This document shows positions 3,808 to 62,725 of a stretch of 64,000 nucleotides of DNA, piece by piece. Numbering within the stretch: position 1 is the stretch's first letter; each line of letters begins with the position of its first letter. The notes beneath the pieces are model-generated. The model was given only the letters and a program-made list of their open reading frames with translations, ran no database searches and had not been told where the DNA came from. This DNA comes from Kiritimatiellia bacterium (GTDB lineage Bacteria; Verrucomicrobiota; Kiritimatiellia; RFP12; UBA1067), in the NCBI GenBank assembly GCA_017454745.1, contig JAFTCL010000048.1, forward strand, positions 22,534-86,533. The letters run 5' to 3'. Both the position numbers and the translations under genes were made by a program.

Positions 3808-5151
3808 ATGAAAACACCAACGACAAAACGCATGCTCGCCGCAGTCGCGGCGGTAACCTGCATCGTAACAGCCGCCCGCGCCGGCAGCGTTCCGGACCAA
3901 TGCCTGGACGCCTGCACGGGCGGCGAGGGCGCCATCCACGTTCAGGGCTGGGCCTATGACCCCGACGCCTCGTCGCAGTCCATCAATGTCCACGTCTATT
4001 TCTATGCCGACTCGGGCTGCACGATCCAGTACGGGGACGTCCGCATACTCACGGCCAACGTGTCGAGGCCCGACGTGAACCAGGCGAAGGGAATCACGGG
4101 CGACCACGGCTTTGCCGCCGACATCCCCGTCTCCAACGCCGGAGACTACTGGGTCAAGCTCTTCGCCATCGACGCCACCGGCGACGGCAATCCGCAGATC
4201 GGCTAGACGAGAAGCGTGACCGTGACGGCGACCGGCTCGCCGTCCGGCGGCTCGTCGGCGGAATCCGGCTGCACCGTCAAGGTCACGAAGTTCCACCAGT
4301 CGTATCCCTACTCGGGCAGGGCGACGGTCGAATACATGGTCGGCGGGACGCTCCCCGCGAACGCCGTCGCGGAAATTATCCTCAATACCGACGACGCGAC
4401 CGCGACCTTCGTCCAGAGCAACGTCGTCGCGGGCGCGAATACGCACGTGATCGACTTCGCCTCGTCCTTCGGCGGCGCGATGCTGCTCACCAATGCCTCG
4501 TTTGTGGTGACGATCACTGGAGAACGGGCTCTCGGCGGCGTGCAACTTTGGGAGAACGGGCCCTACTGGGCGGAGTGCAACGTGGGTGCCACAAAGCCTG
4601 AAGAATACGGTTACTACTTCTGGTGGGGCGACACGGTGGGCTACAAGCGCGAGAACGACGCCTGGGTTGCAGCGGACGGCTCGACGTCCAGCTTCTCGTT
4701 CAACAGCGACAACACGCCCACCTACGGCAAGGACAACGCGACGCTTCTCTCGGAGGGCTGGATCGACTCGACGGGTAACCTCGTGGCGGCGCACGACGCG
4801 GCGACGGCGCACCTCGGCGCACCCTGGCGAATGCCGACGGACGCGGAGTTCTCCGCGCTCCTCGACAACTGCACCACCGAGTGGACGACGCGGAACGGCG
4901 TATCGGGGCAGCTCGTCACGGGCAAGGGCGCATACGCGGACAAGAGCATCTTCCTTCCTGCGGCCGGCTACGGCAACGACTCGCGCCTCTACGGCCTCGG
5001 CTCGTACGGCTTCTTCTGGTCCTCTACGCCGTATTCGGGCAATTCGAACTACGCGTGGAACCTCTACTTCCTTTCGGGCCACATCGACTGGAGCTACGGC
5101 AGCCGCTACGACGGGGTGTCCGTCCGGCCTGTGCGAGGATTTGCCCAATAG
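3808..5151 (+). pseudogene. Secreted FISUMP-domain (Fibrobacter succinogenes major paralogous domain) protein interrupted by an in-frame TAG at 4204-4206. This may be one gene carrying a nonsense codon or readthrough site, or two ORFs (3808-4206 and 4216-5151, the latter starting at GTG).
   Basis: The N-terminal part has a signal peptide (MKTPTTKRMLAAVAAVTCIVTAARA) and an RBS (GGAAGGAG). The C-terminal part (LWENGPYWAECNVGA...YGYYFWWGD...APWRMPTDAEF...YAWNLYF...GVSVRPV) is the FISUMP fold and lacks a signal peptide of its own. Both parts are in the same frame, separated only by TAG. Confidence 0.55.
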
Positions 5152-5199: not shown

Positions 5200-5778
5200 A
5201 TGAACAACCGGAAACACGAAGGACATGCGGACGCGACGGAGCGCGTCCCACCCCGGGCGGATGTGGGAGGGTCGCGCTCCGTCGCGACCGCCACCACGCG
5301 CGTCCTGCCCGCACGCAAACACCCTTCGCGCAATTCAATCCTGACAACTTGCGACAACCGGGCTATCATTCTTTTCGTCACGGTGGTTACGTGCAATCGG
5401 CAGTGCGTGTTGGCCGATTGCAAGGTGCAATCGGTTATTCTGGACGTATGGAGAAGGACCAAGGGCTGGATCGTTGGGCGTTATGTGATCATGCCGGACC
5501 ATATCCACTTCTTCTGTGCGCCGACGTGCTATCCGCCGTCCGACTTCCATGCCTGGATGGCGTGCTGGAAACGCATGGTGTCGAACCGCTTTCCTTGCCG
5601 GCATTCGTTGCCGTTGTGGCAAAGGGATTGCTGGGATACGCAGTTGCGCCGCAGCGAGAGCTATGCCGACAAATGGGAGTATGTACGCAACAATCCCATA
5701 CGCAAGAGGTTGACAGAGGATGCGGATTCGTGGCCGTTTCAGGGAGAATTGAATGTTTTGCAGTGGCACGACAGATGA
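5200..5778 (+). mobile_element. REP-associated tyrosine transposase (RAYT), an IS200/IS605-family Y1 transposase. The true start is uncertain because the annotated N-terminus overlaps a REP hairpin.
   Basis: HuH motif VIMPDHIHFF, an N-terminal ILFVTVVTCNRQ (YFVT.CT.NR-like) block, and the catalytic-Tyr region SYADKWEYVRNNPIRKRL. Flanked by palindromic REP arms at 5226-5290 and 5797-5884. Confidence 0.75.
5226..5290. repeat. REP hairpin on the 5' side of the RAYT. Its two arms are GGACGCGACGGAGCGCGTCCC and GGGAGGGTCGCGCTCCGTCGCGACC.
   Basis: Imperfect inverted repeat read directly. The same arms recur on the 3' side. Confidence 0.7.
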
Positions 5779-5913: not shown

Positions 5914-7053
5914 ATGAAGATGAACAATTTGATGAGTTGTAAATTGCTGGTGACGTTGTTGCTGCTGCTGGTGGGGCGAGCCGTTTCGGGCGCGCCGCTG
6001 GCGCGGCAGAGCGGCGCGGTGGGCGTCGTCACCTACGACCCGTCGGAAACGCAGACGACGCCGGTCCCGGTTCCGTATGCGTGGCTGGACGGCTATCCCG
6101 AACTGCTCGCGGGGCAGTCCGGCGACTACGAGGTCGCCGCCAACGCGACGGCGGCGAACGGGCGCAAGGTGTGGGCGTGCTATGTGGTGGGGCTGGATCC
6201 GTCCGATCCGCTTGACAACTTCCGCATCACGCGCTTCTGGATGGACGGCTACATGCCGATGTTCGTGGTGAGCCCCACGACGAACGGAAGCGGCCGTTCG
6301 ATCCTGCCCTACGTGAGGCCGCTCGGCAAGGCGGAACTGACGGGCGCGTGGCTGCACGTGCCCGACGGCGGCAGCCCCGCTTTCCGGTTCTTCGCGGCCG
6401 AGGTCGTGCCGCCGGGATGCGAATCCGCCGTTGACGACGGCGTCCAGCTCTGGGCGGACGGGCCCTACTGGGCGAAGTGCAACGTGGGCGCCGCGGCGCC
6501 AGAGGAATACGGCTGCTACTTCTGGTGGGGCGACACCGTGGGCTACAGGCGCGAGAACGGCGCCTGGGTCGCGGCGGACAGCTCGACGTCCGGTTTCCTG
6601 TTCAACAGCGACAACACACCCACCGACGGCAAGGACGACGCGGCGCTTCTGTCGGCTGGGTATATCGACGCGACCGGCAACCTCGTGGCGGCGTATGACG
6701 CGGCGACGGCGCACCTCGGCTCGCCGTGGCGCATGCCGACGGACGCGGAGCTTTCCGCGCTTATCAACAATTGCACAACCAAGTGGATCACCACCAATGG
6801 CGTGTCGGGGCGGCTTGTCACGGGCAAGGGCGCATACGCGGACAAAAGCATCTTCCTTCCCGCGACCGGCTACGGCGACGGTTCGTCCCTCCTCACCACC
6901 GTCAACGGCTGCTGGTCCTCCACGCCAGCCGGTTCGGACAGGGCGTGGCACCTCTTTTTATCTTCGGTCTCCATCGGTGCGTTCGGCTTCGGCCGGTCCG
7001 ACGGGAACCGTTACAAAGGGTTTCCCGTCCGTCCCGTCCGGGACGCCGACTAG
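5914..7053 (+). CDS. Secreted FISUMP-domain protein, a paralog of 3808-5151
   Basis: Signal peptide MKMNNLMSCKLLVTLLLLLVGRAVSGA. The C-terminal ~150 aa are ~85% identical at the nucleotide level to 4541-4985 (LWADGPYWAKCNVGA...YGCYFWWGD...SPWRMPTDAEL...GFPVRPV). Confidence 0.75.
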   Translation: MKMNNLMSCKLLVTLLLLLVGRAVSGAPLARQSGAVGVVTYDPSETQTTPVPVPYAWLDGYPELLAGQSGDYEVAANATAANGRKVWACYVVGLDPSDPLDNFRITRFWMDGYMPMFVVSPTTNGSGRSILPYVRPLGKAELTGAWLHVPDGGSPAFRFFAAEVVPPGCESAVDDGVQLWADGPYWAKCNVGAAAPEEYGCYFWWGDTVGYRRENGAWVAADSSTSGFLFNSDNTPTDGKDDAALLSAGYIDATGNLVAAYDAATAHLGSPWRMPTDAELSALINNCTTKWITTNGVSGRLVTGKGAYADKSIFLPATGYGDGSSLLTTVNGCWSSTPAGSDRAWHLFLSSVSIGAFGFGRSDGNRYKGFPVRPVRDAD

Positions 7054-14966: not shown

Positions 14967-15169
14967 CCGCGCCCGGATTGACTATTGCCCCGGTTTTTGC
15001 TAAACTGTTTTTGATTTTCTTTGGCGGTGTATGCCCTTGAAAGAAAAGCGAGGACGGAATGACGGCGAGAGCAAGATATTTCGCATCAATTGCGGCGATG
15101 TAAAGGTGGCAAACGTGACCTTTGCGGGAGTCATTGTTTGTCGTTTCCATGCCTGAGGAAGGAGACTTT

Positions 15170-16285
15170 ATGAATGAGTTGAAGTATGTCGATCCCAAAG
15201 CCGATCTGACTTTCAAGAAGGTTTTTGGCGAACACCCGGACTTGATAACAAGTCTGTTGAATGCGTTGCTGCCCTTGCCGGAGGATGGCCGGATTGTCTC
15301 TATCGAATATCTTACCCCGGAGATTGTTCCCGATGATCCGCTTCACAAGGACAGCATTGTGGATGTCCGCTGCAAGGATCAGAAAGACCGCCAGTTCATT
15401 GTAGAAATGCAGATGATATGGTCTCCGGACTACAACCAGCGCGCTCTTTTCAACGCCGCAAAGGCGTACTCCCGCGAACTTCCGGCGGGCGGGGACTACT
15501 GCAACCTCAAAACAGTCTATTCGCTGAATCTTTTGAACGACAACCTTGATCTTGATGTTCCGCAGTGGTATCACCTTTATCGTCTGGAACACCACAAGGT
15601 CAAAGGCGAGACGATAGACGGAATCCAGCTTGTTTTCGTTGAACTCAAGAAGTTCGAGCCGCACACCTGGCCGGAGCGAAAGATGGCGGTGCTGTGGCTT
15701 CGTTTCCTTACGGAGATTGACGGCAACACGCGCAAGGCCCCGCCGGAACTGGAGGCGAATCCGGAAGTCAGGAAAGCCCTGGAAATGGTGGAGGTTGCCG
15801 CCCTCACCCCGGAAGAGCGGGCGAGGTACGACGGATTTCAGGACTGGCTCTGCCGCGAAACGCGGCGCGCCAACGCCGAGAAAAGACTAAAGGACGCCGA
15901 GAAAGATCTGGAAAGACTTCCCGAGCTTAAGGCGGAGCTTGACGCGGCAAAGTCCGAGCTTGACACGGCAAAGTCCGAGCTTGACACGGCAAAGTCCGAG
16001 CTTGACACGGCAAAGTCCGAACTTGACACGGCAAAGTCCGAGCTTGACACGGCGAAGTTCGAGCTTGACACGGCGAAGTTCGAGCTTGACACGGCAAAGT
16101 CCGAGCGCGACGCGGCAAAGTCCGAACTTGACGCGGCAAAGTCCGAGCGCGACGCGGCGGTAGAAAAGATGCGGCAAGACAAACTCCGGACCGCCCGGAA
16201 CCTAAAGGCCATGAATCTTGCCAACGAGCAAATCGCGGCGGCAACCGGTCTTACCGCCGCTGAAATCGACGCGCTCCAACCTTAA
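15170..16285 (+). CDS. Rpn-family recombination-promoting nuclease / putative transposase (PD-(D/E)XK; YhgA-like), with an internal heptad-repeat coiled-coil insertion
   Basis: Rpn-like N-terminus KYVDPKADLTFKKVFGEHPDLITSLLNALL. Rpn-type C-terminal tail LANEQIAAATGLTAAEIDALQP. Strong RBS (GAGGAAGGAGAC) before the ATG at 15170. Confidence 0.7.
   Translation: MNELKYVDPKADLTFKKVFGEHPDLITSLLNALLPLPEDGRIVSIEYLTPEIVPDDPLHKDSIVDVRCKDQKDRQFIVEMQMIWSPDYNQRALFNAAKAYSRELPAGGDYCNLKTVYSLNLLNDNLDLDVPQWYHLYRLEHHKVKGETIDGIQLVFVELKKFEPHTWPERKMAVLWLRFLTEIDGNTRKAPPELEANPEVRKALEMVEVAALTPEERARYDGFQDWLCRETRRANAEKRLKDAEKDLERLPELKAELDAAKSELDTAKSELDTAKSELDTAKSELDTAKSELDTAKFELDTAKFELDTAKSERDAAKSELDAAKSERDAAVEKMRQDKLRTARNLKAMNLANEQIAAATGLTAAEIDALQP
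15927..16166 (+). repeat. About 11 tandem copies of a 21-bp unit (GCAAAGTCCGAGCTTGACACG) encoding [SELDTAK]n inside the Rpn gene
   Basis: Near-perfect in-frame 21-bp tandem repeats. The last copies are degenerate (TTC/CGC variants). Confidence 0.9.
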
Positions 16286-19296: not shown

Positions 19297-22200
19297 ATGA
19301 TGAACGGTTTTTTGCGTTTTGTGCAAACGGGATGTCTAGTTTTCACATCTCTAATTCTCCTGATGGCGGACAACGCAAATGGGTTGACCGCCTACTCTTA
19401 TGTCCAGAAGGGGCTGGCCGCCTGTTGGGACGGTATCGACAACGCAGGGTCCGGGTCGCACGATTCTTCCGTCCGCACATGGAAAGATTTGACCGGAAAC
19501 GGCTACGACGGCATATTATCGGATATCGTTTCGTGGGAGGACAATTGCTGGTCCACCGCAGTGAGCGGCCGCCCCGTTAAGCTTCCGAATTCGTTCTCCT
19601 ATCTCACCGCCGCACGGACTTTCACCGTGGATTGCGCATTCAGCCCGTCCAGGGCCGAGAAGAGCGCTTCGGCTCGCGAAACGGTTTTCGGACAGTACGA
19701 CGGCAGCTACAACGGCACATTCAACATCGAACACAACCACAACAACCATCCCGCCGGATGCCTTCGTTTTTACATGAATAAAGGGCAGATCGACAAATAC
19801 AGCACGGGTGTGGTTCTGGCCAACCAGAACGCGACGGTCGCGCTGACGGTCACGCCGGCAAAGCAGGTTCTATACATCGACGGCGCGAGCGACACCGTCT
19901 CCACAACCAGTCTGTCCACATTGTACTCCAGCAAAGACACTTACATCGGTGGCGAAACGTCTCGAGAAAGCTTTGGGTTCCGGGGGCGCTACTACGGTTG
20001 CCGCTTCTACGACCGCGCGTTGACTGCGGAAGAGGTGGCGGTGAACCACGCCGTTGACGCCATCCGTTACTGGGGCGCCTCCCCAAACGATTTCACGCTC
20101 TCCGGCGGATACTGCTTTGACGCAGAAGGCGAGTTGCTGATCGACGTAACCGCCAATGTGACCGACGGAGGCGGCAAAGTCTGCGTCGGCACGGGTGGCG
20201 ACGCCTCCGATGCCATCTCCGCAACCATCAACCAGAACGGCACGGAATCCGTCACCTTCACGGCCGTGCCCGACGAGGGCTACGAATTCGCCACATGGGT
20301 GCTGGAGGACGGTGCGATGCTGGACGAAGGCAGCAGTCTCACCGACCCGACAATCAGCATATACGCAAAATGGCCGCTCGCCGTCACGGCGACGTTCCGC
20401 GAGAAAGGCAAGCTGACCGCCTACTCGTACGTGCAGAAGGGGCTGGTCGCCTGCTGGGACGGCATCGACAACGCAGGCACCGGCGAACATGACGAGGAAA
20501 CCCGCGTTTGGAAAGACCTGACCGGAAACGGCTATAACGGTACGCTCGGCAGCGACGTTACCTGGGCGGAGAATGGTTGGCAGAACGAAGCAAACGAAAA
20601 GCCCGTCTCGCTTGGCTACGGATTCTCCACCGTCACCGAACCGTGCAACTTTACAATCGATTTCACCGTCACGCCGTCACGCGCCCCCTGCCGCGAAATC
20701 TTTTTCGGCCAGTTCGGCTGGGACTACGGCTCAATCAACCTGGAACGGAAGGCAAACGGACGGCTGCGCTGCTATTACAACTATGATGAAGTCGATTTCG
20801 AAAGCACACAGGCGATTGCCGCCAACGAAACGGCGAGCTTCACCGTCACCACCACGCCCGGCAAACAGGCCGTGTGGAAGAACGGCGTGAAAGATGTAGA
20901 GCAGACCGACAAGGCGATCAGCGCCATGTCCGGCGGCAAGCCCACCTATATCGGCGCGGACGGGACAGGAAACAGCAACCGGAAGAGCTTCAACTTCCAC
21001 GGCACCTACCACGGCTGCCGCGTATATGACCGCGTACTGACCGACGCCGAAATCGCCGTAAACCACGCGGTCGACGCCATCCGCTACCGTGGGGCGTCCG
21101 CCGGCTCGTTCACACTCTCCGGCGGTTATTCCTTCAACAATTCGGGCAACTTGTTAATCGACCTGACCGCGACGGCCTCGGCCGGCGGCAAGGTCTGCTC
21201 CGGAACGGCGGACGTGGCGGCGGCTACCGCCGTCGCCACCATCAGCCAGGACGGAACCGTTTCCGCCGCCTTCACCGCCGTGCCGGACAATGGCTACGAA
21301 TTCGTAGCGTGGGACGTGGAAAATGGCGGCACGATCATCGGAGGTTCGACGTCCGACGCGACGATCAACATCTCCGCCCGGTGGCCGCTCGTTCTGACCG
21401 CAGTCTTTCGTCCGGCCCGAGCGGCATTCCCCGCGACAACGGTCGCAGACTACGTGAAAGACGGGCTGGTGATGTGGTTCGACGGCGTGGACAACGCGGG
21501 CGCAGGTCGGCACGACGGTGCGGCGGCGGCGTGGGCCGACCTCTCCGGCAACGGCAACGACGCCGTTGCGGTGGGGCCGGGCCTGGGATGGGCGGACAAC
21601 TCCTGCACCAACGCCATCGACGGCAAGCAGACGGGCGAAGCGGGCCTGTTCAGGCTGAACGGCGCCGTGGCGCCGGTTATCGCCAACCGGACCTTCACGC
21701 TGGAAATGGCCATTCGCCCCGGCTTCGTCAAAAACCGCAAAGTGCTCTTTGGCTCGTACGACGGCGCTAGCGGGTTCAACCTGGAAGAGAACGATTCGGG
21801 AATGTTCCGCGTCTTCTACAACAACACGCCGAACGTCGTGACCACCGTGCCGATGGTGAAGGACGAGGAAGCCGTATTCTCCGTTGTCAGCACGGCGGAC
21901 GGGGTTGCCGTCTATAAGAACGGCGTTCCGGTCTATCGCTACGAAGGGGCGATCGACGCCAAAGGCACGATTGCCGCGCTTGAAGATTCCGTCTATTATC
22001 TGGGCGGAGAGCGGCAGCGCGAAGGCTTCACGTACCGCGGCGCCATCTATTCTTTCCGGCTGTACAGCCGCGCCCTGACCTCGGCAGAGGTGTTGCGCAA
22101 CACGCGGCTCGACCAGCAGCGGCTTCTGGCGAATACGACGCTCTGGTCGGACGCGACGGGCGGATCGTGGATGGATAGCGCCTCATGGAGCGGAGGACTG

Positions 22201-24021
22201 CCCAACACGCTGGCACCGGCAATCGCCACGCTGGCCGGGGCGGACGTGCGGATGGGCTTGGCGCAGACGGCCCCGAACACCGCCAACGTCACGCTGGCCA
22301 ATCCGGACGGCACCTCCGTGCTGACGCTTGCAAGCGGCGCGACGCTTCCGGTGCCGGACAACTCCCTGGCCATCGGCGGCGGCGGCGAATTGCGCGTGGA
22401 AACGGGCGGCACACTCGCGCTGGACGTCACCGGTAACAACCCGACCCCGCGCCTGACCGTGGCAGACGGCGGCAAACTTACCGTTGACGGCGGCACCGTG
22501 AAGTTGACGAAATCTCCCGTCTCCATCAACGTTTTCGGCAGCGAAGGCCGTACCGGCACGCTGGAAATCGTTTCCGGTCGAATGGAAACCACAGTCAGCA
22601 ACACCGGACAGGACGGCGTGGCCGTGCTGAAGGGCGGACTCCTGCGAATGACCGGGGGAAATCTCACGCTTAACCGCACTGGGAGCTATAACAACGGCGG
22701 CAATCTTGTGGATGACGGCGGAGCGGTAGACCTTTCCGGAGACGCGGCTCTGATTGCGCACAAGACCGGAATCACCATCGGTTCCGGCACGTTCCGCATG
22801 GCCGATGCCTCCCACATCGACTTCCTTACGGACACGGGCAAGGATGACACTGTCTATAGAGTTCTATTGCAGCCGGGCGTTGGGCGGGAAACGGTCATGA
22901 CGGTCGACGATTCCGCAACGATCACCCCCGATCCGCTTTCCGGCCAGATGCAGTTCTTCGTCGGCTACCAGAACGCAGGATCGCGCACCATCCTGAACTG
23001 GAATTCGACCCAAACGCTGAAAGCTTTGCGTACGTTTGCCGTCGGTTTTGTCAAAGGATACGGCGAACTGAATATATCGCGGGGACAGATCATCGGCGGA
23101 TACAACGGATTCCGCGTCGCGCAGAACTACGCAAATCCGTCCGCCGACGCATGCGTTACGGGTGTGGTGAACGTAATCGGCGGCAGCGTGCGTAACATAG
23201 ACACCGAAAACGACTCCTCGACGTTCCAAGGGCTGATCATCGGTTCTGGCGGATGCGTAAAGATCGCCAACCCCGGCTATTTCTGGGGCACGCTGAACCT
23301 GTACGACGGCGGCGCGGTGACGAACTCCAGCGAATACTTCGGCATCGGCATCGGTTACGCGGAGGGCGTCCTGAACCAACACGGCGGCGAGGTAATCCAC
23401 AACAACAGCTCCAATAACGAATTCGTGATCGGGGCGTGGGGCGGCAAAGGCTCAATGGTCATGGATGGCGGCAGGGCGTGGTCGAAACGCGACGTCTATG
23501 TGGGCGGCGCCACAACCAACAACCTGTACTACAAGCGCTGGAAACTCTACACCCAATGCCCGGTGGACAACCACTGCGCCACCGGACTCCTGCGCGTGGC
23601 GGCGGGCAGATTCGACACGGCGGGCTCCATCTGGGTCAGCCAGGACGGACAGGGGACATTGGAAATCGGCCCCGCCGGACAGGTCTCCGCGAACAACGTC
23701 ATCCTGACCAACACGGTCGCGGAGCTGACCGGCACCGTTGACCTCGCCGCAAAACTCGCCTTCGTTCTGGACGAGGACGGCGCCGGGCTGCTTACCGTGA
23801 CCAACGCGCTGACCATCGGCCAGGGCGTGACCATGGAGGTGGATGCCACCGAAAGGAAAGGGCGGGGCGGAAACATCCCCCTCATCCGCTTTGGGGAGAG
23901 CGAGGGCGAGTTCAGCGCCATCACCGTCAAAGGCGGCGGCACGGTCAAAAAGTTGACCGTTGACGGGATGTCGGGTTACTGGTACCAATTCAGCCCCGGT
24001 ACCATCATCACCATCCTATAG
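19297..24021 (+). CDS. Giant secreted surface protein: three tandem LamG-like (concanavalin A-like, Laminin_G_3) modules, followed by a beta-helix / autotransporter-associated-like repeat region
   Basis: Signal-like N-terminus. The LamG signature DLTGNGYDG / DLTGNGYNG / DLSGNGNDA appears three times, each with a downstream RFYDRALTAEEVAVNHAVDAIRY-type block. The modules recur at DNA level with ~1026-bp periodicity (19381, 20407, 21433). The C-terminal third is rich in G/T/N beta-strand repeats. Confidence 0.7.
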   Translation: MMNGFLRFVQTGCLVFTSLILLMADNANGLTAYSYVQKGLAACWDGIDNAGSGSHDSSVRTWKDLTGNGYDGILSDIVSWEDNCWSTAVSGRPVKLPNSFSYLTAARTFTVDCAFSPSRAEKSASARETVFGQYDGSYNGTFNIEHNHNNHPAGCLRFYMNKGQIDKYSTGVVLANQNATVALTVTPAKQVLYIDGASDTVSTTSLSTLYSSKDTYIGGETSRESFGFRGRYYGCRFYDRALTAEEVAVNHAVDAIRYWGASPNDFTLSGGYCFDAEGELLIDVTANVTDGGGKVCVGTGGDASDAISATINQNGTESVTFTAVPDEGYEFATWVLEDGAMLDEGSSLTDPTISIYAKWPLAVTATFREKGKLTAYSYVQKGLVACWDGIDNAGTGEHDEETRVWKDLTGNGYNGTLGSDVTWAENGWQNEANEKPVSLGYGFSTVTEPCNFTIDFTVTPSRAPCREIFFGQFGWDYGSINLERKANGRLRCYYNYDEVDFESTQAIAANETASFTVTTTPGKQAVWKNGVKDVEQTDKAISAMSGGKPTYIGADGTGNSNRKSFNFHGTYHGCRVYDRVLTDAEIAVNHAVDAIRYRGASAGSFTLSGGYSFNNSGNLLIDLTATASAGGKVCSGTADVAAATAVATISQDGTVSAAFTAVPDNGYEFVAWDVENGGTIIGGSTSDATINISARWPLVLTAVFRPARAAFPATTVADYVKDGLVMWFDGVDNAGAGRHDGAAAAWADLSGNGNDAVAVGPGLGWADNSCTNAIDGKQTGEAGLFRLNGAVAPVIANRTFTLEMAIRPGFVKNRKVLFGSYDGASGFNLEENDSGMFRVFYNNTPNVVTTVPMVKDEEAVFSVVSTADGVAVYKNGVPVYRYEGAIDAKGTIAALEDSVYYLGGERQREGFTYRGAIYSFRLYSRALTSAEVLRNTRLDQQRLLANTTLWSDATGGSWMDSASWSGGLPNTLAPAIATLAGADVRMGLAQTAPNTANVTLANPDGTSVLTLASGATLPVPDNSLAIGGGGELRVETGGTLALDVTGNNPTPRLTVADGGKLTVDGGTVKLTKSPVSINVFGSEGRTGTLEIVSGRMETTVSNTGQDGVAVLKGGLLRMTGGNLTLNRTGSYNNGGNLVDDGGAVDLSGDAALIAHKTGITIGSGTFRMADASHIDFLTDTGKDDTVYRVLLQPGVGRETVMTVDDSATITPDPLSGQMQFFVGYQNAGSRTILNWNSTQTLKALRTFAVGFVKGYGELNISRGQIIGGYNGFRVAQNYANPSADACVTGVVNVIGGSVRNIDTENDSSTFQGLIIGSGGCVKIANPGYFWGTLNLYDGGAVTNSSEYFGIGIGYAEGVLNQHGGEVIHNNSSNNEFVIGAWGGKGSMVMDGGRAWSKRDVYVGGATTNNLYYKRWKLYTQCPVDNHCATGLLRVAAGRFDTAGSIWVSQDGQGTLEIGPAGQVSANNVILTNTVAELTGTVDLAAKLAFVLDEDGAGLLTVTNALTIGQGVTMEVDATERKGRGGNIPLIRFGESEGEFSAITVKGGGTVKKLTVDGMSGYWYQFSPGTIITIL

Positions 24022-33726: not shown

Positions 33727-36700
33727 TTAGTTTGCCGTTTGGCCGCTTCTCACCATAACAGGGCCGATAAGCCCGGAGGGCAGTAGCGCGTCTTCTTTGG
33801 ACCAGTGTTTCCACGTGGTGAAGGTGTGACGCCCGGTTGGGGATTTCTTGCCCTGTTTCACCCATTCGGGGATTTCTTTAACCCCGTACTCTTTTACGCC
33901 CTTGCGCGGTACGCCCTGCCACACGCAGTCTTCCTTGTATAGCCGGTCGTCGCCGATCAGGCGGTTCGCCCAAAGGTTCGTAACCCTGATTTCAAGGTCG
34001 ATGGCGTCCTTGCCCTTAACGGCGTCGGTGATGTCAAGGCGGAAGGGCGGTTTCCACAGTACCGGGAACTTGTTGCCGTTTACCGTGACCTCCGCGAAGT
34101 TCTTGACAACGCCGAGATCAAGCATCACGCGGTCGCCGGACCCGATAAGCGAGCGCAAGGCGTCGCCTTCGATGCGTTTCGCGTAGGTGGCGGTTCCTGA
34201 GAAATAGCATATCCCGGGATCGGAATGCTCGTCCCACGGGATGAGCGAATCAAAGGTGGTTTTTCCCGGAGCTTCCCATCCCGCCGGGAAGGATACCTGC
34301 CAAGGACCGGGAACGACCAGCGCCGCCGCGGGTTGCGCGGAGAGTTTGCTGCTCGTTCCGTTGCTGTCCGTAAGTGTCGCCGTGAGCGGCTGCCAGGCGA
34401 CAATCTTTCCGTCGCGCCATTCCCAGCTCGGCGGCGGTTGCGGGGTTTCCCTGTTGTCGGGAAGTTTGAACCAACCGTGTTCGTTGAAGGTCGATGTTGT
34501 CTCGAATCCGTCGTACACGTAGGTCACGCGCAGCTGCTTGACCGTCTTGAAGAGCGGGTCGCGCCCGGCCAGACTGTTCTCCGCCTGCACCGCGATTTTG
34601 CCGTTTTTCACGGCGGCGGCGATTTTAGCGGTCACGTCGAAAACCGTCGGTTCGGCGGGGGGATTCCAGTCGGGGTCGATTATGCCGTACCACGCGCTTT
34701 GGAGTTTCGCGCCTTCCGGCAGCTTGTAGGACTTGCCCTCTTTGACGATATCGCGCGTAGCGCGGCCGTTCAAGGTGTATCGCACTTCTAGCGCTTTCAC
34801 CTTTTGGGAGGCGGGATCTTCGCCCATTACGGAGTTTTTCACTTCGACCGTCACGCCGGGCTTGATACGCCCGGAAACTTCGATGCATTCCGGACGGATG
34901 CCGTTAAACACGCCGTATTCCGCCTTCTTGATGGTAAGGGTGTGGGGTTTTTCTGGGAGCGCGGGATCGTGGCGCGCGTTCACCTTGGCGTCAACGGTAA
35001 CGAAGTGGTTGCCTGCCGCCGGGCGGCGGAACACCACGAACGAGGATCCGCTCACCGGATAGTCCAGCTTTACAATCGTGCGTCCTTTTTCTTCGCGCCA
35101 GACGTTGGCTGCGGCGATTTTGCCTGTTTCCGCGTCCCATATTTCCGGGGTGCGGCCGGTCTGGCGGAAGGAGGCCTCGAAGGTCGCGTTGGTGGCGTTG
35201 TCGAGCGCGACGAAATACCAGTCCGTACCATCCGCCTGCCGGTGGATCCAGGATGCCGTGGGCTCGCCGGTCGTGAAGTCGGGGGCCACTCCCAGTTTAA
35301 CGAGCGCATCGCCGGCGTTGCTTTCGATGACGCCCTTTGCCCATACTTTGGCGACGAGCGCCTTCATGTTGGTGTCCGACTGCGGCCAGCCGCGCAATCC
35401 GGGCGCGCGCGACGGACGCGACACGCTGCTAACCTTTGCGCCGGCATCGAGCAGTTCGCCGACCTTCCTGACGCATGCCTCGCTCATAGTGTCGGTTTTC
35501 GGGAGAACCAGCAATGCGTACGAAACGCCGCCCGGCGCCACCACGCGCCCGTTCTTTACGGTAAGCGCCATTAGCACCTTGGTGGCGCAGTAGTCGTAGT
35601 CGTAGCCGGCGGGGAGTTTTGTGTCAGTGCCGCCCAGCGGGACGGCTTCGCCGCACCAGAACAGGACATCCGCCGCGAAGGTGCCTTCCTGAAGCATCCA
35701 TTGGCAGCGCGTCTGGTAGCGGAACCAGTCGTTGGCGTATTTCCACCACGTTTGGGTGCGGTCGAGGTGCATTCCCCAGCGGCCCATCGTCATGCCGGGC
35801 AGGTACTTGTCGCCCGGCCAGGGCTGGTGCGTGAAGCGGTGGTAGATGATGCGGTTGATGCCGGCGGCGAACACCTTGTCGCCTTGGCTTTTGATCGTGT
35901 ACGGGGTGGTGCGCCAGCGTCCGCCGATCACCGGGTTGGCGGTGAAGGATTCGGTGGCGGCGTAGCGGCGGCCCCACACGTGCGCGATAGTGGCGGCGAG
36001 CCGCGAGTTGCCGATACCGGCCACGCCATGCTCTCCGCGCTCGGCGGCCGACCAAAACTCGGCCATGGGGATGTCGATGTCCTGACCGTACTGGAGGTTG
36101 TCCGCCGTACAGTTTCCGTACGGCTCGATGGAGCAGAGCAGACCGTGGCGGTGGCAAAGTTCCGTGAGCCGTCCGGCGTAGTTCTCCGCAAAGAGGTCGG
36201 CCACGACGCGGCGGAAATCTTCAAGGAAACGTTCGGTCTCTTCGACGCTGCCGACGATCCGCCCGGCAAACACCGGGAGATAACGGACGATGGAGTATCC
36301 CATGCGCTTCTCGAAGGTCTTGTCGAAGTTCTGGGTCCAGTTTTGGGTGTTGACCTCGTAGCTGTCCACCAGAATGTTGTTGAAGCCGGTCTCGCCGATT
36401 TTCCCCGGTTCGATGCCAAGGGTGTTGCAAAGCCTGGTGACATATTGGTCGAAGTGGTAATCCATCGCCTCGGCGGAGAGTTTGTCCACCTCAAGTCCGC
36501 GCCCCTTCTCCGACGCGGGGTGGTTGCAACGCCCGTTGCAGATGTAACCGATGCGCAATATCGTCCATTCGCCGACGGGGACGTCCCATTCGAGCGATCC
36601 GTCCGCTTTCATCCGCGCCGTCAGCTCCACCACGGAATCCTTTGCCACGACCGTTCCGGCAGCGGCGGGTTTTGTGTCGCGGTTCACCTTGCCGCGCTCG

Positions 36701-37299
36701 GCGAAGGTCTTTTCCGCGAGATTGCTGAGCGTGGCCCCGGGTTTAGGCGTGGGGTAGGCGAGCACCGCGATATCTTCGTAGAAGCCGTTGTCTTTTGCGG
36801 TGCGCGGCAGGATGCCGGAAAAACGGGTTGGCCCTTTGGCGGCGGTCTCGGTGAACACGACACGTTTCATGCCGTTCTTCGGCGGGTTCCACGGGCCGCC
36901 GGATGAGGACCACCCGGAGCAGTTGGGAATGCAGATTTCAAGGCCGAGCCTTTTAGCCTCGGAATGGGCGTGACGGAACATGTCGAACCATTCGGGCGAG
37001 TTGAATTTGAGCGGCCCGGGCGGGATGGCGCATCCGGCGTCAAACATTTGAACTCCGCCGATCCCGGCTTTGGCGAGCGCCTCGAAGTCGCAGGTGATGC
37101 CTTCCTTCGTTACGTTGCCGTTCATCATGTGGTACCAAGTGTGCGGCTTGGCGGAGTCTGGCGGAGCCTTGAATCCCTCCTCCAGCGTCAACGCGAAAAG
37201 CGGCAATGCCGCTACACAGGCAACGGCGCCGAGAACTGCTATTCTAACTTCTTTAGTCATAAGGCTGACCTTTCTTTTGGTTTTCGCCGATTCCGGCAT
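33727..37299 (-). CDS. Large secreted glycoside hydrolase, GH106-like (alpha-L-rhamnosidase family), with a GH2-type sugar-binding-like C-terminal domain
   Basis: Signal peptide. The N-terminal HTWYHMMNGNVTKEGITCDFEALAKAGIGGVQMFDAG block is GH106-like. C-terminus FAEVTVNGNKFPVLWKPPFRLDITD...LEIRVTNLWANRLIGD. The start may be the ATG at 37260 (MTKEV) instead. Confidence 0.45.
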   Translation of the reverse strand: MPESAKTKRKVSLMTKEVRIAVLGAVACVAALPLFALTLEEGFKAPPDSAKPHTWYHMMNGNVTKEGITCDFEALAKAGIGGVQMFDAGCAIPPGPLKFNSPEWFDMFRHAHSEAKRLGLEICIPNCSGWSSSGGPWNPPKNGMKRVVFTETAAKGPTRFSGILPRTAKDNGFYEDIAVLAYPTPKPGATLSNLAEKTFAERGKVNRDTKPAAAGTVVAKDSVVELTARMKADGSLEWDVPVGEWTILRIGYICNGRCNHPASEKGRGLEVDKLSAEAMDYHFDQYVTRLCNTLGIEPGKIGETGFNNILVDSYEVNTQNWTQNFDKTFEKRMGYSIVRYLPVFAGRIVGSVEETERFLEDFRRVVADLFAENYAGRLTELCHRHGLLCSIEPYGNCTADNLQYGQDIDIPMAEFWSAAERGEHGVAGIGNSRLAATIAHVWGRRYAATESFTANPVIGGRWRTTPYTIKSQGDKVFAAGINRIIYHRFTHQPWPGDKYLPGMTMGRWGMHLDRTQTWWKYANDWFRYQTRCQWMLQEGTFAADVLFWCGEAVPLGGTDTKLPAGYDYDYCATKVLMALTVKNGRVVAPGGVSYALLVLPKTDTMSEACVRKVGELLDAGAKVSSVSRPSRAPGLRGWPQSDTNMKALVAKVWAKGVIESNAGDALVKLGVAPDFTTGEPTASWIHRQADGTDWYFVALDNATNATFEASFRQTGRTPEIWDAETGKIAAANVWREEKGRTIVKLDYPVSGSSFVVFRRPAAGNHFVTVDAKVNARHDPALPEKPHTLTIKKAEYGVFNGIRPECIEVSGRIKPGVTVEVKNSVMGEDPASQKVKALEVRYTLNGRATRDIVKEGKSYKLPEGAKLQSAWYGIIDPDWNPPAEPTVFDVTAKIAAAVKNGKIAVQAENSLAGRDPLFKTVKQLRVTYVYDGFETTSTFNEHGWFKLPDNRETPQPPPSWEWRDGKIVAWQPLTATLTDSNGTSSKLSAQPAAALVVPGPWQVSFPAGWEAPGKTTFDSLIPWDEHSDPGICYFSGTATYAKRIEGDALRSLIGSGDRVMLDLGVVKNFAEVTVNGNKFPVLWKPPFRLDITDAVKGKDAIDLEIRVTNLWANRLIGDDRLYKEDCVWQGVPRKGVKEYGVKEIPEWVKQGKKSPTGRHTFTTWKHWSKEDALLPSGLIGPVMVRSGQTAN

Positions 37300-53700: not shown

Positions 53701-56000
53701 CCAACAACACCTTCCAGGGTCCGGTGACGGTAACCCAGGCCAATCAGGTGTTGACGATCGGCGGCGACGAGAACTTCTCGTGGGCTTCGACGGACGGCAT
53801 CTCCACTCCCGGCAAGGTGGTCCTCAAGAACTCGGATGACGATACGTTCAACGATGTCGTTTCCGGAACTGGCAGCCTAGAGAAGCAGGGTGAAGGGCGT
53901 ATGACGCTCACTAAATCCCAGTCCTATTCGGGCGCGACCTCCGTCGAAGCCGGAACGCTCGTTTTCGCTGACGGTGTTAATCTGGCTAATACTTCAACCT
54001 TCCGCAACAACGGGGAGGTCTTCCTCGATTCGTTCGACATACTGGGTACCGGAGCTATTTCCGGTTCCGGGCGTTTCGTTGTCTCCGGCACGACCGATCT
54101 CGACGCGGCCCGCCTTGTCGGAAATCCGGACTTTGAGATCTTGGACGGTGCCTCGCTGGGCATTGATATGCCGGCCTTCAGCGAGAAGACTGAAGTGCGT
54201 CTCGATGACGGATCGAGCGTGACGCTCGGTAGCGGCATTGTAAACCAGGTAAACGGATTCGACCAGTTCTTGTTCAACGGCAGCGCGGTGCTTTCCGAAG
54301 GCAATCTGAAGCTGACACCGTATGCGACAGCCAATGTTGGCTCGGCGTTCTATTCCCGGCGCGTGCGCGTGACAGATCCTTGGGAGGCGACCTTCTCCTA
54401 TCAGGCGGGAGAACATGACGCTTGGACGACGGATCTGCTCGGCGCCGCGCTCGTCCTACAGAACGAAGTGGCGGGACCAAACGCGATTGGCAACGCATCG
54501 TCGGGTTCGACTTTGGGGTGCGCCTTTACCAAGTCCATCGGTATCATCATGCGTGTCGGCGTCGAATCCGATACCCGTGACCGTTACGGCTTCAGCAATG
54601 CCGGCACGATCTCGGACACCACCTCTTCGCGCTCCAACGCTATCGCGGCCGATGGCGGCAACGTGATCAAGATTACCGTGAGCTATGACGGCGCGGTCCT
54701 TAGTGCGTCGTGGGATTGCAACGGTACCGTTCGCCCGACAAGTGGCCCGATGACATGGACGGTTGACCTAAAGTCGATTCTCGGCAGCGAATACGCGTGG
54801 ATCGGCTTCACGGGTACCACGGGCGCTTCGACCGGATGCGAGCAGACGATCAGCGGCTTCTCGTTCCGCAGCATCTCGGATGGCGCAAGCATTCCCGGCA
54901 TCGGCGAAACGGGCTGGACGCATACGAAATACGCGCCGACCTACACGACGGTCGACGACAAGCCGGCGTTCCAGTTAACGCCGTATGCGGAATCCACCCG
55001 GAGTGCGACTTGGAACTCGACGCGCGTATATGTGAACCGTCCTTTCCGTGCGACATTCAAGTATCGCGTGACCCAGCACACTGCCTCCCCGGCGGACGGC
55101 ATGGCGATTGTTCTCCAGAACTTCTCGTCCAACGCTGCGGACTGCTACGGTCAGACGGGTGGAAAACTCGGCATCGTCTATAACGATGGTTCCGATCGCA
55201 CGAAGACGGCGGGCTGGGGTATCAACCTCTACCCGAGCCAAAACGACCAGTGCTTCAAGTATGTGTTGGACGGCCTCTTCTCCGGCGATACCGTTCCCCT
55301 TACGGCATGGGATCTCGCTGACGGCGAAGATACCGAATTCACGCTGTCGTATGATTTGCGCGAGCTGACGCTGACGGCGACCCGTGGCAATTCCTACGTT
55401 TCCGCTTCGCGCGAAGTCAATTTGGCGTCGGTAATGGGTGACAACACGGCGTGGATCGGCTTCACGGGTGCTACGGGCGGATCGTATGCCTGCCAGATTG
55501 TGTACGATTTCTCGTTCGCCTACGAGGAGATGGATATCTCGCGTTATGCCAACCCGTTCGTGGTTGATGGTGCGGTACAGATGAATCTCGGCATGGGCAC
55601 GGTAGGTTTCTCCGATTTGATCCTGCAAGATGGCGCAAATCTCTCAATCGGTTCGGCGTCCGCCCCGGCGGTTGAACTGGCCGGTACGACGCTTTCGGGC
55701 GGAGCGACGGTCTCGTCGGTCGCCGCTGTGCCGATCATTCTCGGGGACACGATTTCGTTCGATTCTTCCACCGGCGTTCTCAAGCTGGTGGGCGATGTGC
55801 GCGCGAACGGCAAGGTGAAACTGGAACTCTCGTCCTTCAATGGTACGCGCAACCTCATCGATCTTACTGAGGCGACAACGTCGCTTACGGCAGACGATTT
55901 TGAGGTGACGGGTGAGGTTCCCCCGCTGTTGCATCTCGACATCAAGGACGGAATGGTCCGCATCTGGCGCGATGTTTCGACGATTATGATTCTCCGCTAA
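50745..56000 (+). CDS. Giant secreted lectin-like surface protein: N-terminal LamG-like domain, a long autotransporter-associated beta-strand (PATR) repeat region, and two L-type (legume-like) lectin domains
   Basis: Signal-like N-terminus. PATR units such as GTGSLEKQGEGRMTLTKSQSYSGATSVEAGTLVF. Two lectin domains marked by AWIGFTGTTG / AWIGFTGATG and ATFSYQ / ATFKYR. 1751 aa. Confidence 0.7.
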   Translation: MSMTDLKCLSGAVALFALTLGAVELETAGELLVDLDASTLSGYSEGDGVRVWPNAGSQADFVYVDTHSKNTPPTYRLRNGAPALRFLGSASGSMTNNVPMPDSLTGNSAWTVEGWIAPTQERTDFRYFLSMPYYKEGTSSTPEAYKRWAFRMDMKTDLYAVEHNSYQLYWGRRSPENAIYRPEVGKWHHICVVHEASGYERVYVNGRVASVGNTALNLSNADPSFFIISGIYRQSTGAWERQNYADYGRIRIQTGALMTAQVISNYNAEKEHYGVTDVPDTLWTDGATWYNGKALALDDNLIIEGDQPLVIDNGASNAVHFITVNAAKNTGLTIDNGSMLTVAYGNDLVQLGNVAGGTFSLLVPNGTFATPNNSITLGLYNSGVGVIGGREDALGIVNCGSSLRVGHYPGGSGEFTIKTNGIVNIASTIRIADGNDAEGHITVEEGGELTVLGDTYICSGTGTGVLDVYGTFTHGTADTTPTCYIAGSATGVGTLNFHPGSVANIQIFRSTSGSTTSTVNIDGATLRTMRGRTSIVEPPVIFNIKNTVTFDIPAGMNGTIRTTVNDLTENGAATIVKTGGGILFLTPNDGQTPSDISSTFIVREGQVTIGNANALAASSTATFKLEGGTVSADYVGGAAALLARIDKSSVGNFMLHGNNVAENLDFSEYPGLTIIPNGTFTYTGTITPYQNKYIFRPTNGLMVYAGNISDKDGFPASVEIYGATDTDGVTLSGLNDGMSGNISVYKGILGISGSSYAAGNPDLTKLYFAEGTSFKLDALVGSTFFTSRIAEGSKPAAILLTDNSANCSVDLSRFPGCRLGTDKTGSVMIQTGSIFPNADNVFLLGGGAVPYYQTSHPGFQPSVMSDNSAGAARVEVGTVGIVNLSNAANTYSGGTSILDGGTVFVTADGFGAIPAEFDEDNIYINGGILRNGNTVFSLAPTRGVKIGPDGAILHPWGTYSIEIPGGLTGAGPVQITDGGFIILSGANNTFQGPVTVTQANQVLTIGGDENFSWASTDGISTPGKVVLKNSDDDTFNDVVSGTGSLEKQGEGRMTLTKSQSYSGATSVEAGTLVFADGVNLANTSTFRNNGEVFLDSFDILGTGAISGSGRFVVSGTTDLDAARLVGNPDFEILDGASLGIDMPAFSEKTEVRLDDGSSVTLGSGIVNQVNGFDQFLFNGSAVLSEGNLKLTPYATANVGSAFYSRRVRVTDPWEATFSYQAGEHDAWTTDLLGAALVLQNEVAGPNAIGNASSGSTLGCAFTKSIGIIMRVGVESDTRDRYGFSNAGTISDTTSSRSNAIAADGGNVIKITVSYDGAVLSASWDCNGTVRPTSGPMTWTVDLKSILGSEYAWIGFTGTTGASTGCEQTISGFSFRSISDGASIPGIGETGWTHTKYAPTYTTVDDKPAFQLTPYAESTRSATWNSTRVYVNRPFRATFKYRVTQHTASPADGMAIVLQNFSSNAADCYGQTGGKLGIVYNDGSDRTKTAGWGINLYPSQNDQCFKYVLDGLFSGDTVPLTAWDLADGEDTEFTLSYDLRELTLTATRGNSYVSASREVNLASVMGDNTAWIGFTGATGGSYACQIVYDFSFAYEEMDISRYANPFVVDGAVQMNLGMGTVGFSDLILQDGANLSIGSASAPAVELAGTTLSGGATVSSVAAVPIILGDTISFDSSTGVLKLVGDVRANGKVKLELSSFNGTRNLIDLTEATTSLTADDFEVTGEVPPLLHLDIKDGMVRIWRDVSTIMILR

Positions 56001-56020: not shown

Positions 56021-56047
56021 CGGGCGGGGCTTTTTTGGCCCCGCCCG
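56021..56047. terminator. Rho-independent terminator-like hairpin, GGGCGGGGC-TTTTTT-GGCCCCGCCC, just downstream of the giant gene
   Basis: Perfect 9-bp GC stem with a T-rich loop/tail, 21 nt after the stop codon. Confidence 0.55.
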
Positions 56048-56279
56048 TTTGTCTTAAGGATAACACTGACGCCGCGATCAGCATTTGTGATGGTACTGGA
56101 CCAGATGGAAAGTAGATACAATGGCGGAGATACATACGGCCGGCTTCGGCGATGTTTTGCTTCGCCCGCGCCTCCTATTATCGGGATTGGTGGGCTGTTG
56201 CCATTATCTGATCTGCTGGAACCGGTTTCCGTAGCAACCCGCCCCGTAAGGATTAAGCGTGGGAATGGGATCGCATAGG

Positions 56280-59349: not shown

Positions 59350-59371
59350 TGGCGGAAAGGATTCTCAAAAG

Positions 59372-60322: not shown

Positions 60323-60333
60323 CGCCCGGACGG

Positions 60334-62712: not shown

Positions 62713-62725
62713 CTTTCCCCCACGA

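Follow-up and report, generated by a model that had tools for sequence, protein, structure and literature searches.

A strictly terminal heptapeptide tail on giant lectin/beta-helix proteins of Kiritimatiellae, a candidate C-terminal sorting or anchoring signal

In the rumen and in sediments, Kiritimatiellae are abundant and degrade polysaccharides. For the many giant lectin/beta-helix proteins in their genomes, annotation goes no further than "autotransporter-associated beta strand repeat-containing" or "hypothetical". The stretch of DNA analysed here (64,000 nucleotides, designated as the window) carries two genes for giant secreted proteins, G1 and G2, both of which have a hydrophobic extreme C-terminus. 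The initial annotation described a motif, DGM..W.......TI.IL, shared by the two termini, regarded the proteins as otherwise unrelated in this region and proposed that the motif acts as a sorting or anchoring signal. This raises the questions of whether the likeness is real, which residues carry it and what such a terminus may do.

The terminal sequences and coordinates reported initially for both proteins are correct: the G1 frame closes with TAG at 24019–24021 after ...LTVDGMSGYWYQFSPGTIITIL, and the G2 frame with TAA at 55998–56000 after ...LDIKDGMVRIWRDVSTIMILR (Table 1). The intrinsic-terminator-like hairpin directly 3' of G2 shows that its reading frame truly ends at the tail, with no plausible read-through extension. 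G1 opens with a signal peptide, continues with three tandem LamG (+InlB B-repeat) units and a beta-helix, and closes with the C-terminal tail. Pfam matched Laminin_G_3 three times, together with Flg_new_2, and internal repeats relate aa 30–368, 373–705 (51% identity) and 715–942 (32% identity). The beta-helix region of G1 is common to most family members and is autotransporter-passenger-like. In G2, the signal peptide is followed by LamG, PATR repeats and two legume-lectin domains, and the protein closes with a short beta-helix end module and the tail. A database look-up of the exact G1 sequence gave no record, and the database relative P0004 corresponds to G2 at 100% identity.

Table 1. Features of the two giant proteins and further proteins bearing the tail
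Feature	Position or locus	Strand	Basis or remark
G1, secreted giant protein, 1574 aa	19297..24021	+	ORF
G1 predicted N-terminal signal peptide, about 28 aa, MMNGFLRFVQTGCLVFTSLILLMADNANG	19297..19380	+	translation; approximate boundary
G1 conserved C-terminal beta-helix region, aa ~975-1567	22219..23997	+	
G1 terminal module, aa 1494-1567, homologue of the G2 end	23776..23997	+	hhalign, family vs family
G1 heptapeptide tail GTIITIL	23998..24018	+	sequence and family matrix score
G2, secreted giant protein, 1749 aa, NCBI MBQ9431714.1	50751..56000 (alternative start 50745)	+	
G2 terminal module, aa 1674-1744 (numbered from 50745), homologue of the G1 end	55764..55976	+	
G2 heptapeptide tail STIMILR	55977..55997	+	sequence and family matrix score
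Intrinsic-terminator-like hairpin directly 3' of G2	56021..56047	+	11-bp stem, 10 GC pairs, then T run
Homology-independent tail carriers	G3 in L019; 1636-aa protein in L023; neighbours in L008, L011, L012, L013, L014		

Only pairwise BLASTP, run on the last 200 aa (E 0.46), agrees with the view that G1 and G2 are unrelated here. Family profiles do not: when the G1 and G2 families were compared with hhalign, 78 columns aligned up to the last residue with a probability of 92.6% and an E-value of 4.7e-7. Of the proposed motif, the hydrophobic extreme C-terminus stands, while the exact string and its DGM/W half do not. TI.IL does not literally fit G1, which reads TIITIL, and the spacing from W to TI is not the same in the two proteins, with a difference of 2. 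The DGM triplets lie two residues out of register when the profiles are aligned, and both DGM and W are missing from P0002, G1's own homologue (...SSGYVLDRSSGTMVIVR); the DGM..W half is therefore coincidental. MSGYWYQF forms the last strand of the G1 terminal module (DSSP strand E314–321 of the model).

The conserved part is a terminal heptapeptide, G-T-x-Φ-x-Φ-[R/K]-COOH. Among 89 distinct tails, G occupies position -7 in 87% and T position -6 in 71%; positions -4 and -2 are hydrophobic in 100%; position -3 accepts T, S, Q, R and K; R/K is found at -1 in 91%; and polar residues predominate at position -9. About 9% lack the terminal R/K, including G1, which ends in L where the family carries R/K. 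The tail has a hydrophobic run of 4–5 residues followed by a single R/K before the stop codon. Most of the 89 tails were gathered with a tail-containing profile, which makes their conservation partly circular, and this is mitigated by the ORF scan and the seven homology-independent cases described below.

A profile of 10 tails was searched against 1.84 billion (1.84e9) representative proteins. The alignment ended three or fewer residues from the C-terminus in 62 of the 71 matches, and 66 of the 71 carry the tail strictly at their last residues; a word-indexed homology search with the tail alignment returned fragments only. With a position matrix trained on 44 more distant family tails, G1 (10.5 bits) and G2 (7.8 bits) ranked first and second among the 33 gene termini of the 64-kb window, and across the family matrices the scores were 10.5–12.9 bits for G1 and 7.8–9.0 bits for G2. 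Internal 7-mers reach the G1 score at a frequency of 5e-5 and the G2 score at 5e-4. When 925 six-frame ORFs from the window and related loci were scored, 27–28 termini reached at least 8 bits, every one of them belonging to a large secreted protein, and the next best scored 6.1. The hydrophobic extreme C-terminus of G1 and G2 is real and far beyond chance.

Recurrence on other large secreted proteins had been suggested as a check on the motif, and the tail is present on at least seven further ones. Seven neighbouring genes, none picked by homology, encode tail-bearing giant secreted proteins, one of them about 80 bp outside the window. Six of the seven give no score with the HMMs of the C-terminal module, and BLAST of the last 150 aa detected no mutual similarity among the seven. 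The tail is portable between otherwise dissimilar giant proteins. Signal peptides are found on G1, G2, G3 and most full-length members; the carriers contain LamG, legume-lectin or PA14 domains, and several tail-bearing paralogues occur per genome, as tandem arrays and beside sugar-utilisation genes. G1 and G2 belong to a Sec-exported class of giant lectin/beta-helix proteins of Kiritimatiellae, mostly from rumen MAGs, in a related-locus survey that was seeded by a narrow G1-like alignment and whose taxonomic sampling is biased to close relatives.

AF2 models were made as monomers of the last 330 residues of G1 and the last 165 of G2. In the G1 model, residues 322–330 are coil, and the final 10-residue block has a pLDDT of 70. 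In the G2 model, exactly residues 159–165, the seven tail residues, fall below a pLDDT of 50 and are coil, while the strands adjoining the tail score above 88 in both models. Before the tail, the predicted fold corresponds to that of autotransporter passengers and of the IcsA autochaperone region. The tail is predicted to be exposed and unstructured in both of these confident AF2 models.

Neither NCBIfam nor Pfam has a model that matches the tail (full-length proteins at E<=0.1; isolated tails against NCBIfam at E<=10), in agreement with the initial statement that it corresponds to none of PEP-CTERM, Por/T9SS CTD and LPXTG. PEP-CTERM, like the tail, sits at the end of PATR/beta-helix proteins, and both follow the same three-part logic of a small motif, a hydrophobic stretch and a basic end. 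PATR relatives that are proteobacterial or taxon-untyped metagenomic have an autotransporter barrel or PEP-CTERM at the tail's position; P0012, P0014, P0017, P0020 and P0022 end in PEP, a TM helix and an Arg cluster. However, none of the 89 tails contains P-E-P, the sequence reading ...[S/P/D]-x-G-T-Φ4-R instead, and neither TIGR02595 nor a related *-CTERM model of NCBIfam was matched. In place of a TM helix of about 20 residues with an Arg-rich cluster, the tail has 4–5 hydrophobic residues and one R/K, a length that does not allow a helical membrane span.

The passenger side of a type Va autotransporter, which combines a PATR/beta-helix passenger and an autochaperone region with a linker and a 12-strand barrel (PF03797), is present in these proteins as a beta-helix with an autochaperone-like C-terminal end and PATR repeats. 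In G1 and G2, however, the chain stops 7 residues past the helix, with neither linker helix nor barrel. PF03797 was not matched in Pfam/NCBIfam scans, and the barrel-containing PATR relatives end in ...RW. The T9SS CTD resembles the tail as a C-terminal feature on many large secreted glycan-active/adhesin proteins, with a hydrophobic last strand and a basic residue near the end. It is, however, a beta-sandwich of 70–100 aa from Bacteroidota/FCB, whereas the tail unit comprises 7 residues in a PVC-group host; TIGR04183/PF18962 was not matched, and the predicted preceding fold is a beta-helix. LPXTG and type I secretion signals share with the tail the placement of information at the extreme C-terminus of large adhesin-like proteins. 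The former requires, in monoderms, a pentapeptide together with a TM helix and a basic tail, whereas neither LPXTG nor a TM segment occurs in G1, G2 or the tails. Type I substrates lack a Sec signal peptide, usually have RTX repeats and keep an uncleaved C-terminal signal; this route is ruled out by the signal peptides on G1, G2, G3 and most members, and Pfam gave no RTX match.

A close likeness is to the beta-signal of outer-membrane proteins (OMPs), for which the consensus polar-x-G-x-x-[aromatic/Φ]-x-[aromatic/Φ] is quoted in bioRxiv 10.64898/2026.09.25.754295. The tail keeps this register, with its mostly polar -9, its G at -7 and its fully hydrophobic -4/-2. Both elements lie at the extreme C-terminus and have a glycine five residues before the last hydrophobic residue, a mostly polar residue two before the glycine and a strict hydrophobic dyad around a tolerant position. 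They differ in that the tail-bearing proteins have no barrel, and in that the dyad of the tail is aliphatic rather than aromatic and is followed by R/K rather than F/W/Y. With no barrel, an aliphatic dyad and a last residue that is R/K in 91%, the tail is not the last strand of a transmembrane barrel and lacks the aromatic end typical of one. A searched literature on the secretome, autotransporters, LamG and PEP-CTERM/exosortase of Kiritimatiellae/Kiritimatiellota yielded no description of the tail.

These findings are best read as a new, short signal for sorting or anchoring, placed at the C-terminus and in the OMP beta-signal register, a function that we infer. All computable evidence fits the signal role proposed at the outset; the definition of the motif and the supposed unrelatedness of the proteins needed to be corrected. 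We tentatively favour, at somewhat less than even confidence, a linear C-terminal targeting/anchoring signal that docks on a separate outer-membrane barrel. After Sec export, a passenger-like protein without a barrel or transmembrane anchor of its own would present the free tail, which would add one more beta-strand to an outer-membrane beta-barrel encoded by another gene, for which an Omp85/BAM-type protein or a dedicated anchor is a candidate. A precedent is a lectin protein whose unstructured C-terminal peptide can bind strand 1 of BamA through beta-augmentation (PMC13463100). The strand would correspond to the register polar-x-G-x-x-Φ-x-Φ plus one terminal basic residue. Such pairing may bring the lectin domains to the cell surface, or keep them on it, for the capture of glycans; for G2 and G3, given their GH32 locus, fructan is the obvious candidate. 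The tail would then do the job of the beta-barrel in classical autotransporters and of PEP-CTERM in other PATR proteins. Canonical bacterial beta-signals end in an aromatic residue within a barrel, which speaks against docking of a basic, aliphatic, barrel-less tail, as do the lack of a partner gene recurring near some 20 loci and the tails without R/K.

A more specific proposal, which we regard as unlikely, is that the tail is a beta-signal-like hand-off strand in a barrel-less ("split") type V-like pathway, in which the passenger docks by beta-augmentation onto a separate Omp85/BAM-family barrel that exports it or retains it at the surface; in a variant, delivery to another cell's BamA would make these proteins giant lectin-guided BAM inhibitors. 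If the split pathway were true, it would represent a secretion/anchoring route that is not yet described and is apparently specific to Kiritimatiellae.

Similarly unlikely is that the tail is a structural element only, namely a final strand or cap closing the beta-helix, or a strand for swapping or oligomerisation that stacks the proteins head-to-tail, with no sorting role. The tail directly follows a beta-helix whose open end needs capping, and among G1-like proteins its conservation only slightly exceeds that of the module's core positions (2.28 versus 1.84 bits per column). Monomeric, truncated AF2 runs could also miss docking in cis or trans. However, both models leave the tail as low-confidence coil next to well-predicted strands, and its retention on proteins whose preceding 150 aa are dissimilar makes a common cis partner unlikely. 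A strict terminal position with R/K-COOH would also be unusual in a core strand.

Less probable again is a minimal membrane/LPS anchor, in which a stretch of four or five hydrophobic residues reaches into the outer membrane's outer leaflet while the Arg/Lys binds the phosphates of lipid A/LPS, non-covalently and with no protein partner. A hydrophobic run that precedes one basic residue and is exposed and unstructured in the models would suit this role, as would the failure to find a partner gene near the loci examined. Six residues are, however, very short for holding a protein of 100–190 kDa, and G at -7, T at -6, the strict -4/-2 and the charge-tolerant -3 suggest recognition of a beta-strand by a protein, not an effect of bulk hydrophobicity.

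The tail could also be a BAM-targeting warhead. The giant proteins would then act as lectin-like bacteriocins, attaching to surface glycans of a competitor and inserting the tail into its BamA in the manner of L-type pyocins/Llps. We consider this very improbable. L-type pyocins and LlpA/B resemble G1 and G2 in combining lectin domains with a C-terminal peptide that is unstructured and contains a Φ-x-Φ dyad, and the tail fits the beta-signal register. However, Llp peptides are hypervariable and aromatic, have no glycine and carry a cap residue after the dyad, in the motif [aromatic/Φ]-x-[aromatic/Φ]-x-[aromatic/H] (bioRxiv 10.64898/2026.09.25.754295), whereas the tail is conserved and aliphatic, contains glycine and ends one residue past its dyad with no cap residue. 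The lectins of G1 and G2 are LamG and legume-type in proteins of 1000–2000 aa, 4–7 times larger than Llps, which have an MMBL beta-prism and about 250 aa. No MMBL domain was found, and we did not place G1 and G2 among the Llps/L-type pyocins. A further difference is that a genome has several copies, arranged in tandem and linked to loci for sugar utilisation.

The chances are slimmer still that the tail is a tag read by a PDZ protease or a processing enzyme of the periplasm, serving quality control or trimming rather than targeting. Tail-specific proteases and the PDZ domains of DegS/DegP read hydrophobic C-termini, and the tail is exposed in the models. A tag for degradation alone would, however, hardly persist on dozens of proteins that are so large and costly; in addition, a terminal basic residue is atypical of such PDZ ligands and the gene context offers no support. 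Chance similarity of two unrelated C-termini, to which the non-significant BLASTP and the out-of-register DGM would point, can practically be discarded, as it is refuted by the profile search, the profile-profile homology and the score gap among the 925 ORFs, along with the family-wide conservation and strict terminal position.

A 7-residue, position-specific tag provides a computable marker of the lectin/beta-helix surface proteome of Kiritimatiellae and a concrete handle for tracing its export or anchoring machinery. Since no Pfam/NCBIfam model covers the tail, its definition would improve annotation. It is possibly an example of a C-terminal sorting signal that has no transmembrane segment and acts by beta-strand docking.

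A co-occurring transpeptidase or translocon, which the initial annotation had suggested looking for, was not found within about 10 kb of any locus examined. No partner gene was found in the window (Pfam, ~40 ORFs), in the same-contig flanks or beside homologues; no Omp85-, sortase-, exosortase- or peptidase-like gene recurred within about 10 kb of some 20 loci, and no exosortase gene was seen in the window or in ~10-kb flanks. The search for a partner gene turned up only housekeeping genes, CAZymes, transporters and transposases. Near G2, the gene order is G3-MFS-GH32-PBP-RR-HK-G2, and the tail-bearing G2 and G3 thus flank a GH32/sugar-transporter/sensor cluster.

The two giant secreted proteins of the window, G1 and G2, carry typical N-terminal signal peptides, and their translated open reading frames (ORFs) end in ...LTVDGMSGYWYQFSPGTIITIL and ...LDIKDGMVRIWRDVSTIMILR, respectively; no other window ORF of at least 150 aa has a similar C-terminus. 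G1 comprises three LamG units with InlB B-repeats; a further stretch of about 600 aa has no family match. The LamG units form three tandem copies of about 340 aa, the first (aa 30-368) being 51% identical to the second (aa 373-705) and 32% identical to the third (aa 715-942). G2 (NCBI MBQ9431714.1, annotated as 'autotransporter-associated beta strand repeat-containing protein [Kiritimatiellae bacterium]') combines LamG, PATR repeats and two legume-lectin domains. Behind its stop codon lies a GC-rich terminator hairpin with an 11-bp stem.

Positions of the features discussed (L, fetched genome locus)
Feature	Position	Strand	Details
G1 gene	window 19297-24021	+	1574 aa; stop TAG at 24019-24021
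G1 tandem copies (aa 30-942)	window 19384-22122		
G2 gene	window 50745/50751-56000	+	stop TAA at 55998-56000
G3 gene	start ~80 bp past right window end		
G3-to-G2 cluster	window 56259-63955 and L019 5726-9984 (just right of window)		
Borderline tail variant	L003 5304-6467		387 aa
Tandem giant genes	L008 2876-8690; L011 2-4972; L012 1-4972; L013 247-7285; L014 2-4972		
Lcl_C/DUF1566-like pair	window 4216-5151 and 5914-7053		
ORF between the pair	window 5200-5778		192 aa
PDDEXK_2 gene	window 15122-16285; L022 5349-6272		
GH106 rhamnosidase	window 33727-37299	-	1190 aa

The initial annotation proposed a shared motif (DGM..W.......TI.IL) on otherwise unrelated C-termini. Its hydrophobic extreme end is indeed the shared element and is conserved across the family. 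The DGM...W half is not: the G1 homologue P0002 (47% identical) reads ...SSGYVLDRSSGTMVIVR, and profile-profile alignment places the two DGM triplets two residues out of register, with the glycine of the G2 triplet aligned to SG-YWY of G1. Nor did the supposed unrelatedness hold. BLASTP between the C-terminal regions found nothing significant (E 0.46), and hhalign of G1-family tails (54 sequences) against G2-family tails (14 sequences) aligned both ends with 92.6% probability (E 4.7e-7) over 78 columns, colinear up to the last residue. Therefore, G1 and G2 share a diverged terminal module of ~80-110 aa plus the tail.

Homologues of G1 and G2, which come from Kiritimatiellae MAGs, end in GTFLIVR, GTMVIVR, GLAISFR, STVLFFR, GTVLLLK and GMLFIVR, and more distant PATR matches (proteobacteria or untyped metagenomes) bear a C-terminal PEP-CTERM (PEP, TM helix and Arg cluster) or an autotransporter barrel (...RW). 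A profile of 111 positions from ten tails, searched against 1.84 billion representative proteins (E<=1e-3), retrieved 71 proteins; in 62 the match stops no more than three residues short of the C-terminus, and the tail is the C-terminal end in 66. Over 89 distinct tails, most of them collected with a profile that itself includes the tail, the positions counted back from the C-terminus are mostly polar (-9), G in 87% (-7), T in 71% (-6), hydrophobic in 79% (-5), 100% (-4 and -2) and 85% (-3, where T, S, Q, R and K are tolerated), and R/K in 91% (-1). The terminal Leu of G1 occupies the Arg/Lys position in the profile-profile alignment, and the basic last residue is missing, as in G1, in ~9% of members. 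Judged from these sequences, the likeness of the two tails is a family feature and not a coincidence. The literature searched, whose coverage is incomplete, contained no earlier description of the tail.

AlphaFold2 models were made of truncated monomers. The last 330 aa of G1 form a beta-helix (23-sequence alignment; pLDDT 91.9, pTM 0.92) that ends in the strand MSGYWYQF; SPGTIITIL behind it is coil, with pLDDT down to 70 in the last block of 10 residues. In the model of the last 165 aa of G2 (pLDDT 83), precisely the seven residues of the tail drop below 50 and lack secondary structure, the blocks ahead of them being at 88-95. The conserved heptapeptide is thus predicted to lie outside the fold in the monomer. 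Where a classical autotransporter would pass into its linker and barrel, the G1 and G2 chains have only seven residues left. That the tail is purely a structural or oligomerisation strand appears unlikely next to these monomer models.

As the initial annotation held, PEP-CTERM, LPXTG and T9SS signals do not match: no NCBIfam (release 20) or Pfam model hits the tail or the module, or isolated tails at E<=10. PEP-CTERM and LPXTG were rejected by the absent motif, a hydrophobic run of 4-5 residues versus ~20, and one basic residue; a minimal LPS or membrane anchor, with so short a run, is improbable. A T9SS CTD was rejected by the beta-helix fold and the lack of an HMM match, and a T1SS signal because the carriers have Sec signal peptides. 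We consider it reasonably probable that the tail is a sorting or anchoring signal of some kind, the best-supported reading being a linear C-terminal peptide that targets or anchors autotransporter-like passengers lacking a barrel. An outer-membrane barrel partner would most plausibly recognise it as an extra beta-strand, and this docking mechanism, as stated, is tentative. In register, the tail agrees with the consensus of the OMP beta-signal, given in bioRxiv 10.64898/2026.09.25.754295 as polar-x-G-x-x-[aromatic/Φ]-x-[aromatic/Φ], extended by a single basic residue at the end; unlike that signal, it has no barrel, is aliphatic and ends in R/K. Lectin-like bacteriocins, whose unstructured C-terminal peptide beta-augments BamA strand 1 (PMC13463100), offer a precedent for the docking chemistry; their peptides, however, are hypervariable, aromatic and without glycine, and a BAM-targeting warhead of this Llp-like kind is very improbable here. 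A tag for a protease or PDZ domain is also very improbable. Around the examined loci there is no recurrent gene of sortase, exosortase, Omp85 or peptidase type, and a co-occurring transpeptidase or translocon gene, as envisaged at the outset, was not found within about 10 kb of any of them.

Six-frame ORFs of all fetched loci were scanned for the tail, giving seven carriers not chosen by homology: G3, a 967-aa protein with two LamG domains (...FRFIGGTVFMLK); a 1636-aa DUF2341/LamG/PA14 protein adjoining a G2 orthologue (...KPAGLTIMMR); and neighbours of G1-like genes in L008, L011, L012, L013 and L014 (...GTRILLK, ...GLTIVIR, ...GTILVVR, ...GAVIIVR and ...GTSLILR). Six of the seven score with neither module HMM, and none resembles another by BLAST over the last 150 aa. 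By sequence comparison, the tail is portable between proteins. When scored with a matrix derived from 44 distant tails, G1 comes first and G2 second among the 33 gene termini of the window; 5e-5 and 5e-4 of internal 7-mers, respectively, score as high. Scores over 925 ORFs are bimodal: 27-28 termini, all belonging to large secreted proteins, reach >=8 bits, and none of the others exceeds 6.1; a chance likeness is exceedingly improbable. A signal-peptide protein adjoining a G1 orthologue (...GESFTVRIIR, 8.0 bits) is a borderline variant without G-T. Tail-bearing genes are frequently tandem (L008, L011-L014), with 2-3 G1-like paralogues per MAG. Such pairs or arrays of giant genes occur in several rumen Kiritimatiellae MAGs, their upstream partners differing in sequence and sharing the heptapeptide end.

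Among close G1-like relatives, to which the taxonomic survey was confined, all 16 genome loci found with the G1-like alignment come from uncultured MAGs, mostly of rumen or omasum and named Kiritimatiellae, some labelled Lentisphaerae or Verrucomicrobia. A separate Kiritimatiellae MAG is the source of homologue P0016. The remaining window genes are housekeeping and carbohydrate-active, including GH106 rhamnosidase, a melibiase-like protein, GH32, MFS transporters, citrate synthase and gyrase A. From G3 to G2 the order is G3, MFS sugar transporter, GH32 with LamG, periplasmic binding protein, response regulator, Y_Y_Y hybrid sensor kinase and G2, a fructan-type utilisation cluster with a tail-bearing lectin protein on either side. 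The layout is reminiscent of a polysaccharide-utilisation locus, with the giant lectins as putative surface glycan binders; the position of G3 and G2 on both flanks of the transporter/GH32/sensor cluster suggests a role of their lectin domains in glycan capture. Elsewhere in the window, two Lcl_C/DUF1566-like paralogues (55% identical over 294 aa), separated by an ORF without a Pfam match, both end in ...VRPVR, another recurring C-terminal motif. Both in the window and in an unrelated Kiritimatiellae MAG (L022), a tail-bearing giant gene has a PD-(D/E)XK 'PDDEXK_2' transposase-family gene a few kb away, which may be coincidental. For the GH106 alpha-L-rhamnosidase, Pfam gives an additional, unexpected match to DnaJ-like_C11_C (aa 867-947, E 2e-9).
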